Assembly (NCBI GenBank): GCA_963708135.1
Contig: OY970192.1
Span: 5,312,001 to 5,376,000, forward strand
Direction of reading: 5' to 3'
DNA from: an uncultured Gemmatimonadales bacterium
Lineage (GTDB): Bacteria > Gemmatimonadota > Gemmatimonadetes > Longimicrobiales > RSA9
Length of the DNA: 64,000 nt
Shown here: positions 11,819-41,399 of the stretch, one piece after another
How positions within the stretch are numbered: the first letter of the stretch is position 1
Layout: every line of letters begins with the position of its first letter
Notes under the pieces: generated by a model
Database searches by the model: none
Told to the model about the DNA's origin: nothing
The model's input: the letters and a program-made list of their open reading frames with translations, nothing else
Program-made: the position numbers and the translations under genes

Positions 11819-12214
11819 ATGGCCGAGACGGTGAACTGGACGGTCAGCGTGCAGGTGCCCGCGGGTCCGCGGCTGGCGCAGTCGGGCGCGTTGACAGTGG
11901 ACGCGTACGACAAGGTGGACGTGTCAGTAGCGGACGGGGACGCGGACCTGGAGGTACAGATCCAGCCCGGCGGCGCGGGGCAGGTGCAGGTGCTGGTGGT
12001 GGCGACGGATCGGCCGAGCGCGGACCTGAGCTACAAGGTGAACGACGCGGCGGCGAAGCCGATCACGCTGGACCAGCCCGTCCACGCGTATCTCGGGGCG
12101 GGTCCCGTGGCGCTGCTGGATGCGGCCTCGGGGCCGAACAGCCTGTTGTTCACGAACGCGAGCGGCCAGACGGCCGTGATCCAGGTGCTGGTGGGCCGGA
12201 TGGCGACGGCATGA
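11819..12214 (+). CDS. eCIS-associated hypothetical protein (beta-rich, 131 aa)
   Basis: GGAGG RBS; first gene of the operon. Confidence 0.75.
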   Translation: MAETVNWTVSVQVPAGPRLAQSGALTVDAYDKVDVSVADGDADLEVQIQPGGAGQVQVLVVATDRPSADLSYKVNDAAAKPITLDQPVHAYLGAGPVALLDAASGPNSLLFTNASGQTAVIQVLVGRMATA

Positions 12215-12254
12215 GGCCGGACCGGACGGAGCCCACGATGCGGAGGAGGGTGGC

Positions 12255-38354: not shown

Positions 38355-41300
38355 ATGGCACTCGTCACGACCGGGCTCACCAACGGTGGAGCGACCACCC
38401 ACTACCGTTTCCAGTACGACGATTCCCTCGCCGGTGCCGGTGGCCCGGAGCCGGCGCGGACGAACACCATGATCGCCGCGTGTGAGGACGACTTCGACCT
38501 CATGTCCGGCTGGTTCGGCAACATCGCCCTGACCGTTGCCACCCCGATCACCGTCAATGTCGTGCCGGGCGCCTATGCCAGCGCCGGCTGGGGGCCTCCG
38601 ATCACCCTGACACCGGGCAACGCCTCGGATGCGATCCTGTGTCGGTACCTGCTTGTCTCCGAGGTGACGGAGATGTTCATGCTCGCACAGAACGCGGGCT
38701 GGTTCGCCCCCGACGGCAGCAACGAGGGCAGCGCGGGCGAGGGCCTCTCGCGATTTCTCGCCTCCCGGTTCCTTGTATCCATCGGACAGCCCCCCGCAAT
38801 GCCGGGCTTCGGCCTCGCGAACAGCTGGATGAACAGCCCCCGCGATGACTTCGTCAACCACGTGGATCCGGGCGACCACGGGATCGACGCGAAGACGGGC
38901 TGCGCCATCCTCTTCATCTACTACCTCTTCACCCAGCTCGGCTTCACGATCGAGGAGATCGTCGCCGCGGCCGCCGACCAGCTCTCGAGCGTCTACGCCA
39001 ACCTCACCGGGGACGGGAGCGATCCCTTCCCGTTCTTCAAGCAGCTGCTCGACACCGCGTATCCCGGCACGACGACCATCGGCGGGGCCAACCCGGACGA
39101 TCCGTTCCCGCTGGGCATCCTCTCGTTCTGGGTGGGCAAGAGCACCTTCGGCAGGGACGAGGTCCAGGACGTCGTCGCCTCCGCGAGCAACGGCACGTTC
39201 CCGAACGCCTACTGGCTCGTGCTGGAGGGCTTCAACCGGAAGGGGTTCACCGGCCTCGGCGTGGCCGCGCCGGCCTTCTCCGGCCCGTTCGCCGGCCTCC
39301 CCGGCCTCACGCTCCCCGCCGACAGCTCCGGCGTGGCCTTCGAGACCGCCGACACCCGGGTCCCGCAGCGCATTCGCTTTCCCTTCGACATCCGCTTCGC
39401 CAGCGCGACTCTGAACTCGTTCCCCGCGCCGGGTGAGGCACCGCTCCAGGAGACACTCCAGGCGGTGGTCGACGCGGGCGGCTCTCCGCTGCACGGCGCT
39501 TCGGCCATCACCGAGTTCGAGCTGGTCTCGGGCGCCGATCCCTACTTCACGGACATCGATCCGGCGCAGAACAACGTCTTCTGGCTCAGCCGCGACCTCC
39601 GCGTGTTCACCGCGTCGCCGAGCCTGAACGCCACGCCGGTTCCCGGCGCGCCGCCGGTCCCGGCCGACAGCTTCGCGGGCGCCTACGGCTACATCCAGAG
39701 CCTTCTGGCGTTCCTGAACAACCCCGCGAACCACTTCACCGACGGCTCGAACGATCCCTTCGCCTCGGGCGTCATCCCGGACCAGGCGGGGTCGCTGACG
39801 GGCGACTCGTCCGTGTCCCGGTACACCATCACCGGCTTCCCGCCCCAGTTCCACACCAACTATAACTTCGCCATCGCGAGAGTCCGCCTGCGCGGCACGG
39901 CCGGTCCGGCCGGGCAGGCGCAGAACGTCAGGGTCTTCTTCCGCCTGTGGTCAACCCAGACCGCCGACACAGGATTCGACCCGGGCTCGACTTACCTCAG
40001 TCACGTGGACGGCGGCCGGCCCCACTGGCCGCTGCCCGCGCCCGACAGCCACACAATCCCCTTCTTCGCCGCGGGCAACGCTCCGGATCTCGCTGATCCC
40101 AACAACCCCGAATACGGGAGCGGAGGCGTCAACAACCGGACGATCACCATCGCGTCGGGCGACGACGCCTGGGCGTACTTCGGCTGTTTCCTCAACGTGT
40201 ACGACCCCGCGAACGTGGTGAACGGCTCGCAGGTACAGGCACTCCTCGCCGGCACGCACCACTGCCTCGTCGCCGAGATCGCCTACGACAATGCGCCGAT
40301 CGTCAACGCCAACGGCGTCGTCGTCAACCCGGAGCGCTCCGACAAGCTCGCGCAGCGCAACCTGCAGCTGACGTATGCGGACAATCCGGGCCCGGCGGAC
40401 ACGCATCGCGTGCCGCAGACCTTCGAGCTGTCTCCCGCGCCGGCAATGGTGGCCGCTGCCGGCGCGCTGCTCGACTATCCCGACGAGCTGATGATCGATT
40501 GGGGACGGACACCGGCCGGGACGATCGCGCACATCTTCTGGCCGCAGATCGACGCCACAAAGGTGCTGGACCTGGCGAACCGCTTCTACGGCGCGCATCT
40601 GCTCTCCGCGTCCGACGCCCGCACTGTCAACTGCCGGGTGACGCATGGCGTGAGCTACGTCCCCATCCCGCCGGGGACCACCCAGAACATCGCCGGCCTG
40701 CTCACGGTGGATCTGCCGCAGACCGTCACGGTCGGCCAGGAGTTCGACATCGTCGTGCGCCGCGTCTCTACCCGCCGCTTCCGACAGGTGCCCATCGAGA
40801 CCAAGCGCGGCCTGCCGGTGCGCACCCACCTGCAGACACGCGGAAACGGCCCAGCCACCGAGTCTGGCGAGATCGAGGAGAACCGGGAGCCCCGCGTCAT
40901 CCCGCCGATGCGGAACTGGCGCTACGTCGCCGGGACCTTCCAGGTGAAGATCCCCGTGACCACCCCGCAGGTCATGCTCCGCCCCGACCAGGACGCCCTG
41001 GCGGTGATGAAGTGGCGACTGCAGGCCATGTCTCCTTCCAACCGCTGGCACCCCGTCATCGAGCGCTACGTCCAGTACCTCACCGCCCGGATCACGGGGC
41101 TCGGCGGCGACCCCGACGCGATTCCCCCCTCGCCCAGCGGTGCTCCGGTGACGCCGCACGGCGGGAAGCACCGGGTCCAGCACACCGGGAAGGTCGTCGA
41201 GATCGTCTATGATTGCTACGGCCACTTCGAGGGGTTCGTGCTGAGCGAGTGCGGCGAGCTCCGCACCTTCTGGACGCGAGAGGCTGGCGTCGAACGGATC

Positions 41301-41399
41301 GCGCTGCGGGCCTGCCGCGCACACCTGCTGCTGTCCGTCTACGTCGAAGCCGGACATCCGAACGACGGTCGGATCGCCAGGCTGGTCATCCGATGCTGA
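38355..41399 (+). CDS. Large hypothetical protein (1014 aa), candidate eCIS accessory or cargo
   Basis: AAAGGAG RBS, long ORF co-directional with eCIS; no signal peptide. Confidence 0.8.
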   Translation: MALVTTGLTNGGATTHYRFQYDDSLAGAGGPEPARTNTMIAACEDDFDLMSGWFGNIALTVATPITVNVVPGAYASAGWGPPITLTPGNASDAILCRYLLVSEVTEMFMLAQNAGWFAPDGSNEGSAGEGLSRFLASRFLVSIGQPPAMPGFGLANSWMNSPRDDFVNHVDPGDHGIDAKTGCAILFIYYLFTQLGFTIEEIVAAAADQLSSVYANLTGDGSDPFPFFKQLLDTAYPGTTTIGGANPDDPFPLGILSFWVGKSTFGRDEVQDVVASASNGTFPNAYWLVLEGFNRKGFTGLGVAAPAFSGPFAGLPGLTLPADSSGVAFETADTRVPQRIRFPFDIRFASATLNSFPAPGEAPLQETLQAVVDAGGSPLHGASAITEFELVSGADPYFTDIDPAQNNVFWLSRDLRVFTASPSLNATPVPGAPPVPADSFAGAYGYIQSLLAFLNNPANHFTDGSNDPFASGVIPDQAGSLTGDSSVSRYTITGFPPQFHTNYNFAIARVRLRGTAGPAGQAQNVRVFFRLWSTQTADTGFDPGSTYLSHVDGGRPHWPLPAPDSHTIPFFAAGNAPDLADPNNPEYGSGGVNNRTITIASGDDAWAYFGCFLNVYDPANVVNGSQVQALLAGTHHCLVAEIAYDNAPIVNANGVVVNPERSDKLAQRNLQLTYADNPGPADTHRVPQTFELSPAPAMVAAAGALLDYPDELMIDWGRTPAGTIAHIFWPQIDATKVLDLANRFYGAHLLSASDARTVNCRVTHGVSYVPIPPGTTQNIAGLLTVDLPQTVTVGQEFDIVVRRVSTRRFRQVPIETKRGLPVRTHLQTRGNGPATESGEIEENREPRVIPPMRNWRYVAGTFQVKIPVTTPQVMLRPDQDALAVMKWRLQAMSPSNRWHPVIERYVQYLTARITGLGGDPDAIPPSPSGAPVTPHGGKHRVQHTGKVVEIVYDCYGHFEGFVLSECGELRTFWTREAGVERIALRACRAHLLLSVYVEAGHPNDGRIARLVIRC

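Follow-up and report, generated by a model that had tools for sequence, protein, structure and literature searches.

What kind of machine is encoded by the long run of coupled genes between positions 11819 and 38312 of this stretch of DNA, and on which side of its producer's envelope would that machine act? The stretch, called the window below, comprises 64,000 nucleotides (positions 5,312,001 to 5,376,000 of contig OY970192.1, assembly GCA_963708135.1) from an uncultured Gemmatimonadales bacterium; positions are those of the window unless a contig is named. Gemmatimonadota are abundant soil bacteria of which few have been cultured, and we know of nothing on how they fight or signal. An earlier note on this DNA had read the genes as an uncharacterised contractile injection system (CIS) whose mode of release and target were unsettled, and that reading stands, no member of the lineage being known to have been characterised. 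We put the probability that the locus encodes a CIS at about 0.97, judging from the protein families recognised, and this CIS very probably belongs to what we call the DUF6519/gpI lineage, after its DUF6519 fibre and gpI-like baseplate adaptor.

The G+C content of the window is 68-78%, and raw lists of open reading frames (ORFs) are crowded for that reason, with 148 ORFs of at least 80 residues within 9-45 kb. Genes were called on the window ORFs by third-position G+C (GC3) and codon-position likelihood, which gave 23 plus-strand genes (here g00 to g22) between 11819 and 41399; neighbours overlap by 1-10 nt or lie no more than 42 nt apart. The 22 genes in 11819-38312 are a single tightly coupled plus-strand CIS operon, which agrees with the coupled gene set described earlier. 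The end of the locus had been set at 41399; since the last gene (38355-41399) is not linked to a CIS in any of five relatives, we end the system at 38312.

Profile searches against Pfam, NCBIfam and PHROGs identified most of the parts of a contractile tail; all genes named here lie on the plus strand, and values in brackets are E-values. The contractile sheath (Cis2/Afp2-4 equivalent; 12255..13829; PF04984 and PF17482 at ~3e-11, phrog_23 at 4.7e-55) precedes an inner tube of the gp19 family (Cis1/Afp1; 13846..14367; PF06841 1.5e-43, TIGR02241 3.6e-44), and each is present as a single copy in the whole 5.45-Mb genome, as expected from the one sheath and one tube reported before. Next to the tube lies g03 (14371..15105), a lineage-core protein with two CxxC pairs that matches the baseplate hub family phrog_150 (3.6e-5) and, weakly, the PF12322 'T4 baseplate protein' (1.2e-5; 25.6 bits against a cut-off of 24.5). 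The tail terminator or cap (Cis16/Afp16; 16028..17278; Pvc16_N 2.3e-47) carries an Ig-like TIG domain (0.0019) and is followed by the AAA+ ATPase (Cis15/Afp15; 17275..19233; PF00004 1.4e-27, winged-helix WHD PF22977 7.9e-20, phrog_10401 4e-67). Farther downstream come a tube initiator or adaptor of the CIS_tube family (23296..23958; PF19266 1.5e-6) and a small tail-X/LysM-like baseplate protein (23963..24265; phrog_7145 2.6e-6, with PF05489 at 0.0017, below its cut-off). The hub and spike are divided between two genes, again as the earlier note had it: a gpD/gp27-like hub (24268..25389; NF033848 VgrG_rel 1.1e-6 over positions 70-351 of 547, phrog_52 2.2e-7) and a gpV/gp5 OB-fold spike (25386..25886; PF04717 1.4e-23, VgrG_rel positions 378-505) match the N- and C-terminal halves of the NCBIfam VgrG_rel model. 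A PAAR-like spike tip (25883..26206; PF05488 0.0058), kept in four of five relatives, and a gp25-like baseplate wedge (Cis9; 26203..26565; PF04965 9.2e-17) lead to the two baseplate J-like paralogues already recognised, the first (Cis11) at 26562..29060 (TIGR02243 1.1e-86, PF04865 3.4e-8) and the second at 29057..31516 (TIGR02243 1.2e-63).

The same libraries returned no match to holin, endolysin, capsid, terminase or TssJLM families among the cluster ORFs, as had been reported. The accompanying statement that every module of a headless contractile tail is present holds for the structural families just listed and is too strong as a whole, because no Afp14-type tape measure was recognised in any cluster ORF; neither g10, which occupies the position that Tme has in the Streptomyces davawensis CIS, nor the low-complexity g04 matched a tape-measure family. 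A Kyte-Doolittle scan of the cluster found no membrane-protein pattern, only one sub-transmembrane peak each in the sheath, cap, initiator, hub and first baseplate J-like protein.

As for the lineage, it is marked by two genes near the end of the operon. The earlier gene inventory had missed the fibre, and with it the catalogued type to which the locus corresponds, as well as a frameshift in the adaptor gene. The fibre gene g20 (33811..37185) encodes a DUF6519 (eBAP5) protein (PF20129 1.6e-58), and the same domain is found in 43 of 44 C-terminal homologues, query included, and in all five tested genomes with a related sheath. In an AlphaFold2 model built with 43 homologues (predicted local distance difference test, pLDDT, 81.2), residues ~680-1005 form a very confident beta domain, which Foldseek matches to seven-bladed WD40/G-beta propellers (E ~1e-12, target template-modelling scores of 0.65-0.79); the fibre is thus predicted to carry a propeller. 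The best-conserved stretch of the 43-sequence family is its Cys-rich tail, the last ~85 residues (window 36930-37185), in which some Cys, Asn, Arg, Ser and Pro positions are invariant and which ends in ...FCCWVF. The last ~16 residues are predicted to form a helix, basic along one stripe and aromatic on one face (pLDDT 35-53), and the tail may serve as a membrane-binding or an assembly tag. Directly after g20 lies g21 (37206..38312), a beta-sandwich and coiled-coil protein with weak TTR-52/CarboxypepD_reg and coiled-coil matches, which follows the DUF6519 gene in G401, G402 and G403 as well (55-76% identity). We rejected the idea that g21 is a split-off fibre end, since longer DUF6519 homologues (~1430 residues) have no similarity to it.

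The gene upstream of the fibre, g19 (31513..33787), encodes a P2 gpI/Mu gp48-like baseplate adaptor and is one gene broken in the assembly by a +1 frameshift near 32426. The coding-type composition of the ORF that starts at 31513 ends at ~32420-32440, after which the signal passes to the +1 frame and the initial frame becomes Arg-rich. In the relatives, g19 is a single open frame (819 residues in G401, 777 in G402, 830 in G405, 1038 in G403 and 779, for a ~750-residue gene, in G131); a sixth match, in G404, ends at the contig end. Nucleotide alignment with loci L041 and L042 shows that the window carries one extra base at ~32425/32426, where L041 encodes the motif ICDLSTW. One soil-metagenome run yielded a 244-nt contig (depth 2.3) that differs from the window by two substitutions and one gap; it lacks base 32426, has A>G at 32428 and thus reads in the same frame as the relatives. 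Because of this contig, single and of low depth as it is, an assembly error or a strain variant appears more likely than decay. A programmed frameshift was rejected, since the relatives have one frame and the read-derived metagenome contig is in frame. The only match of g19a is a weak one to Mu Gp48 (0.14), and the orthologues match Tail_P2_I in two of four cases (0.002 and 0.0075) and Gp48 in two of four (0.016 and 0.033), all below the cut-offs; position and length fit a Tail_P2_I adaptor. To our knowledge, no search aimed at the point having been made, no member of the type that combines eBAP5 with Tail_P2_I has been experimentally tested.

That type has been catalogued recently. PMC12923769 (Nat Commun 2026) describes DUF6519 as 'eBAP5', a baseplate-anchor domain of the fibres of extracellular CIS (eCIS) present in 658 genes, and pairs eBAP5 fibres with Tail_P2_I adaptors in a group presented as a previously missed subtype. 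The present locus shares with it a DUF6519 protein directly after the gpI-like adaptor and baseplate-J genes, the DUF4157, Pvc16_N and CIS_tube markers, and a spread across phyla with many Actinomycetota. It differs from what is described there in several respects. The paper links eBAP5 mainly to Actinobacteriota, whereas the host here belongs to the Gemmatimonadota, and neither 'Gemmatimonad' nor 'Longimicrob' occurs in the five searchable files of its supplement. The fibre parts named there are macroglobulin, pectin-lyase, lectin and hemagglutinin, in contrast to the distal seven-bladed propeller predicted here, and the locus here has two TIGR02243 paralogues. The type is said there to be largely without an Afp12 homologue; the second paralogue may count as one. 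Gemmatimonadota themselves are not new to the field: Table S1 of Geller 2021 has an entry for an eCIS operon of Gemmatimonas aurantiaca T-27, and a 2022 review counts Gemmatimonadetes among the eCIS phyla. The kind is already known, the architecture having been catalogued in 2026 and the Gemmatimonas operon listed in 2021, and the locus is therefore a further member of a known, experimentally untouched lineage.

Whole clusters were compared protein by protein with those of three Gemmatimonadota metagenome-assembled genomes (MAGs; 80-87% sheath identity), a betaproteobacterial MAG (60%) and G131 (53-57%), and the order from the sheath through g21 is conserved, with the whole core kept in all five. 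By sheath, the nearest named loci are in a Gemmatimonadales MAG (87%) and two Longimicrobiales MAGs (81% and 80%). Relatives at 48-64% come from Gammaproteobacteria, Arenicella, Candidatus Jettenia, a betaproteobacterium, Nitrosopumilus, a Bathyarchaeota MAG and Sphingomonas, and likewise from Frankia, Streptomyces, Amycolatopsis, Nocardia, Paraburkholderia and Caballeronia. Besides Gemmatimonadota, the lineage takes in actinomycetes, proteobacteria, anammox bacteria and ammonia-oxidising archaea. The order sheath-tube-g03, with g03 directly after the tube gene, occurs in 32 of 34 named loci, drawn from Gemmatimonadota, Pseudomonadota, Planctomycetota, Actinomycetota and archaea. Within 10 kb on each side of the sheath, these 34 loci contain a cap in 29 cases, the ATPase in 28, the tube initiator in 26 and the N-terminal part of the DUF4157 protein in 19. 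Within the phylum, a sheath match at E<=1e-20 was found in 24 of a sample of 400 other genomes but in none of the seven from the same family, and the distribution is for this reason patchy. Sheaths on plasmids are 44-55% identical in uncharacterised loci of Rhizobium, Novosphingobium, S. europaeiscabiei, Ensifer and Cupriavidus, ~38-39% in Mycobacterium sp. JS623 and Paracoccus, two genera found on the lists of the S. davawensis group, whose records are probably the listed ones, and 33-35% in Streptomyces loci resembling the S. coelicolor CIS (CIS-Sc).

How does the locus compare with systems that have been studied? Against the PDB, the sheath best matches 8bky from the S. coelicolor CIS, over its full length (1.5e-70, 241.7 bits); then come the haloarchaeal 9ezm (6.6e-70, 239.6 bits) and 8bl4 from S. 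venezuelae. The PVC, Afp, AlgoCIS and Anabaena sheaths match only over the C-terminal half (Pvc2 3e-44, Afp3 1.2e-40, AlgoCIS 5.4e-36). The first baseplate J-like paralogue has a sole PDB match, 9gtp_1K (5.2e-14), the ATPase meets only generic AAA proteins, and the PDB sequence search gave no significant match for the cap, g20, g10 or g08 profile. The S. coelicolor/venezuelae CIS (subtype IId; PMC10066040) thus provides the best solved sheath and the only solved baseplate-J match, and it shares with the locus the absence of a typical tape measure and the presence of a DUF4157 gene in the cluster. Yet closer, uncharacterised members of the lineage stand at 44-87% sheath identity (pairwise identities only), with the CIS-Sc-like plasmid sheaths at ~33-35% compared with 44-55% within the DUF6519/gpI lineage. 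Moreover, CIS-Sc is without a tail fibre (PMC10066040), whereas a DUF6519 fibre gene is present here; it reportedly needs the membrane protein CisA, an adaptor encoded beside the baseplate genes that has a transmembrane segment and a sugar-binding domain, whereas the hydropathy scan of the cluster showed no membrane protein; and the order cap-ATPase-DUF4157-sheath of S. lividans differs from the order here.

The haloarchaeal membrane-bound CIS of Halogeometricum borinquense (PMC11566945) likewise has a pair of cis11 genes, is without homologues of a plug or tape measure and contains a variable mid-cluster region with DUF4157 proteins, which in that system are secreted cargo. It differs in its archaeal envelope and in its correlation with an adjoining six-helix membrane protein, of which there is none here. 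With the S. davawensis CIS (PMC11126660), the locus shares a DUF4157 protein immediately 5' of the tube-initiator and spike genes (Tme there; here g10, then g11-g14), a cluster that opens with the sheath and closes with probable fibres, and a clade that extends across distant phyla. However, Tme is large, with a C-terminal EndA-type nuclease at residues 2030-2247 and predicted membrane helices, whereas g10 has 768 residues, no hydrophobic helices and, in place of the nuclease, a predicted C-terminal beta-meander and OmpA-like domain. The Mycobacterium sp. JS623 and Paracoccus plasmids, from genera on the S. davawensis lists, have sheaths only ~38-39% identical, and none of the organism names of the relatives occurs in the S. 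davawensis supplement (PMC11126660). The class I extracellular systems Afp, PVC and AlgoCIS have the cap, ATPase, spike, PAAR, gp25 and baseplate J modules in common with the locus, in contrast to its single sheath gene, split spike, lack of a recognised Afp14, and gpI-like adaptor and DUF6519 fibre in place of Afp12/Afp13.

The middle of the operon holds the cargo candidates. Directly upstream of the baseplate genes, g10 (20974..23280; 768 residues) is a DUF4157 protein (PF13699, eCIS_core, 4.4e-25) that appears to consist of an HExxH domain, a beta-meander domain, an OmpA-like peptidoglycan-binding domain and a C-terminal region; the HExxH motif is HELAH at residue 146, within the DUF4157 domain. 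Residues 200-768 recur in 39 other proteins, and among these 40 sequences, query included, 37 have PF13699 and one has PF00691 (OmpA). The AlphaFold2 model has a pLDDT of 79.1 and a predicted template-modelling score (pTM) of 0.45. In VIA-align, residues ~465-678 align with OmpA-like peptidoglycan-binding domains (Z 10-11.4, 107-120 of 109-123 residues aligned) and residues ~248-430 with outer-membrane beta-barrels (Z 10-12.5), although the modelled barrel match may be a mere beta-meander. Full-length g10 is found only in G401 (80%); elsewhere among the relatives only the N-terminal DUF4157 part is present, and G403 has none. Elsewhere in the genome there is a second, weak eCIS_core match.

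Two genes upstream are specific to this strain. The C-terminal ~140 residues of g08 (19493..20197), a candidate cargo, fall in a domain family without annotation, members of which are fused to DUF4157 in other proteins, the architecture described for eCIS toxins by Geller 2021. The family has 67 representative clusters at E<=1e-3, in which the match is always C-terminal, and invariant motifs FDDCY and LKVEQNH; among 21 homologues tested, 10 carry an N-terminal PF13699 and two a PG_binding_1 domain. A metagenome search with the single g08 protein found nothing, and one with a smaller g08 alignment found seven short loci, two of which have DUF4157 in the same ORF and none of which has g09 as a neighbour. 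All five syntenic relatives and all 34 named loci are without g08. The adjoining g09 (20199..20972, likely start 20493) is a JAB/DUF4329-like small protein with the motif HNH...SQTD, which fits the JAB-like pattern HxH...SxxD; its Atlas language-model score to DUF4329, Prok-JAB and Toxin-JAB1 clusters is 0.94, Pfam gave no match at E<=1, and g09 is likewise absent from the five syntenic relatives and the named loci. DUF4157 has been tied to eCIS toxins (Geller 2021), haloarchaeal DUF4157 proteins are secreted in a CIS-dependent manner (PMC11566945), and a DUF4157 protein co-purifies with a spike complex (Nagakubo 2024). On balance, we favour a DUF4157-linked cargo that targets the cell envelope, as judged from these domain associations.

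In G403, a Longimicrobiales genome (C26:28803-34920), there is no DUF4157 gene, and three extra large plus-strand genes (encoding 542, 816 and >682 residues) follow the g21 homologue; they are candidates for an alternative cargo.

The source genome is one contig of 5,445,952 bp with a completeness score of 97.65%. It also contains a self-contained type VI secretion system (T6SS) at contig 1010-26610, with TssM, TssL, two TssK, TssB, TssC, Hcp, TssE, TssF, TssG, TssA, VgrG, DUF6931 and PAAR genes (26 of the ORFs called in contig 1-52,000 were annotated, over contig 1-38,065). If the contig is circular, this T6SS lies ~95 kb from the CIS. TssL and TssM occur there with a sheath, tube and baseplate of their own, and the CIS cluster in turn has no TssB/TssC sheath, Hcp, TssJLM membrane complex or ClpV. 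The earlier note would have fallen to head, packaging or TssJLM genes grouping with the CIS, and we found none: TssL and TssM occur only inside the separate T6SS, and the HK97 capsid family PF05065 and the terminase families PF03354 and PF03237 (TerL_ATPase, Terminase_6N), the only capsid and terminase families searched genome-wide, have no match. In one Gemmatimonadota bacterium, a classical T6SS thus stands side by side with a further injection machine, from a lineage catalogued by sequence alone. Outside the T6SS cluster, on the minus strand at contig 32053-35393, lies an orphan protein of 517 residues whose single chain has both a VipA-like part (5e-9) and a VipB-like part (1e-45); the protein adjoins a DUF2207 membrane protein and comes after a DDE transposase.

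How might such a machine work? Judging by the families recognised and by what has been solved for Afp, PVC and AlgoCIS, a baseplate made of gp25, the two baseplate-J paralogues and the gpI-like adaptor would form around the split gpD/gpV spike with its PAAR-like tip. Tube and sheath would polymerise from the tube initiator until the Pvc16-type cap closes them, while the AAA ATPase may help in assembly or loading. The ejected cargo would be g10, at the Tme position, together with the strain-specific g08/g09 insert, and the site of action would be the bacterial cell wall or periplasm, a destination suggested by the OmpA-like domain of g10 and by PG_binding_1 on some g08 relatives. The likeliest course, in our view, is that particles are freed by the death of a fraction of the producer cells, bind other bacteria through their propeller-tipped fibres and fire. 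That the CIS acts in this way, released and outside its producer, is a tentative call that falls just short of even odds. For it speak the fibre gene, the absence of a membrane adaptor from the cluster and the separate, complete T6SS that is available for contact-dependent delivery.

Several observations pull the other way. As for the machine itself, the lack of a recognised Afp14 counts against completeness, the Tail_P2_I and PAAR assignments fall below Pfam cut-offs, and the adaptor gene is frameshifted in the assembly. As for the cargo, the roles come from position and domain association only; Foldseek found no match to the g10 model at E<=0.001, so that the OmpA-like call rests on VIA-align, a sequence motif and the Pfam match of one homologue; and the 21 of 67 g08 homologues that were domain-tested were hand-picked and mostly longer ones, which makes for a weak call. 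As for the site of action, there are no lysis genes in the cluster, the nearest studied sheaths act from inside the producer (the S. coelicolor one is cytoplasmic, the haloarchaeal one membrane-bound), the S. davawensis CIS has probable fibres and yet affects its own producer (PMC11126660), the mode of action is not reliably readable from sequence (PMC12998442), and the amphipathic-looking tail of g20, which is conserved more strongly than the rest of the fibre, might attach to the membrane of the producer itself.

It is accordingly quite conceivable, if not what we would expect, that the same machine works from inside its producer. It could be tethered to the cytoplasmic membrane by the DUF6519 protein and fire outward on contact, in the manner of the haloarchaeal system or of T6SS subtype iv; alternatively, it could fire in the cytoplasm under stress and kill its own cell, as in Streptomyces, in which case peptidoglycan-directed cargo would replace lysis by holin and endolysin. 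The nearest solved and studied sheaths do come from cell-internal systems, and the haloarchaeal one shares the pair of cis11 genes and the variable mid-cluster DUF4157 region and also has a 'tail-fiber' Cis13. The missing lysis cassette fits as well, as do the conserved C-terminal helix of g20 (the last ~16 residues, with the basic stripe and aromatic face) and the ~70 residues before it, and the architecture is common to diderm bacteria, monoderm bacteria and archaea, all of which share a cytoplasmic membrane. However, the membrane-binding reading of the tail is a prediction at pLDDT 35-53, the cluster has no transmembrane adaptor like CisA or Hbor_38620, and it encodes no trans-envelope proteins although the host is presumably diderm. 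The producer already has a full T6SS, and the CIS-Sc type is without fibres and has a more distant sheath (~34% compared with 44-55% identity in the plasmid search). A bolder and unlikely variant, drawn from the models, would make g10 an envelope-directed payload with a porin-like beta-sheet and an OmpA-type anchor and let the DUF6519 fibres end in a membrane-binding helix, so that the CIS would dock on a lipid membrane instead of a surface receptor and deliver wall-binding or wall-degrading cargo into the periplasm. If it were true and the periplasm were the producer's own, release without a lysis cassette would be explained, and the g08 domain would be a new family of CIS toxins.

Two further readings question whether there is a working CIS at all. 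The locus might be a decaying, non-functional remnant, in which the g19 frameshift is real and no baseplate forms without the wedge protein. The extra base near 32426 does split a gene that is one open frame in five relatives, and the locus is absent from all seven sampled genomes of the same family; nevertheless, we give this little credence, as all other genes are intact with strong codon bias, the soil-metagenome contig (one contig, at depth 2.3) restores the frame of the relatives, and isolated indels in an assembly are frequently consensus errors. Still less credible, to the point of being hardly tenable, is the idea that the genes form a tail module left by a defective myovirus prophage, or an R-type tailocin. 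P2-like tails share homologues of the sheath, tube, gpD/gpV, gp25, gpJ and gpI, but the cluster carries the eCIS markers Pvc16_N, AAA ATPase, DUF4157 and DUF6519, and the genome has no match to the three capsid and terminase families. Tailocins carry a lysis cassette, and the cluster has none. Moreover, no integrase was found among the flanking ORFs scanned with Pfam, and no long direct repeats or attachment-site repeats flank the cluster. We hold to a CIS of the DUF6519/gpI lineage. The question whether class II systems act outside or inside their producers could be put here to a diderm representative. The locus also offers objects for experiment: a fibre with a predicted propeller and a conserved tail, a DUF4157 protein in which a peptidoglycan-binding domain is predicted, and an unannotated toxin-like domain linked to DUF4157.

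The operon contains other small genes, all on the plus strand. Upstream of the sheath, g00 (11819..12214) encodes a small beta-rich protein with no family match, of which a homologue lies ~0.5 kb 5' of the sheath in 11 of the 34 loci and also in G402 and G405. The Ala/Pro/Arg-rich g04 (15105..16031) has a low coding score (19.8) and no family match; its conserved C-terminal segment, which contains the motif IEITIGRVEVRAV, is kept in G401, G402, G403, G405 and six of the 34 loci. A motif similar to IEITIGRVEVRAV begins g07 (19224..19496), a small protein that is confined to Gemmatimonadota relatives (G401, G402 and G403 at 46-66%; three of the 34 loci).

Beyond the operon end, g22 (38355..41399, plus strand) encodes a 1014-residue protein of a large unannotated family and is probably a neighbour, not part of the CIS. 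Its homologues comprise 1306 matches; the best 120 are 53-80% identical and ~1000-1050 residues long, and none of these has a Pfam domain. Named sources include Nitrospira, Gammaproteobacteria, Paraburkholderia, Terriglobia and the archaeon Nitrosotalea. The gene is absent after the cluster in all five syntenic relatives, distant homologues occur in four of the 400 other genomes of the phylum, a weak match occurs in one of five other CIS-bearing genomes, and the homologue in G131 lies on a different contig from the CIS. A role as effector or component was rejected given the lack of CIS linkage in relatives, the absence of HExxH and an Atlas result that amounts only to a lead of 0.76 to 'neutral metalloprotease'.

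Scans for promoters and terminators in the window gave no signal above shuffles. By Pfam, the CIS is flanked by ordinary genes of the chromosome, and the only tRNA (Pro) sits 5 kb downstream of the cluster. Divergently transcribed from the operon is a LuxR/GerE-type response regulator (10739..11500, minus strand; GerE 6.4e-16 and a weak Response_reg match), a candidate operon regulator. A homologue stands beside the sheath gene in G131, G402, G403 and six of the 34 named loci, and this recurrence beside related clusters is consistent with the finding of Geller 2021 that GerE regulators adjoin eCIS operons. Farther upstream, toxin-antitoxin remnants are found at 701-1365 and 3056-3328 of the window, namely a PIN toxin with a MazE-like antitoxin and a lone Phd/YefM antitoxin.

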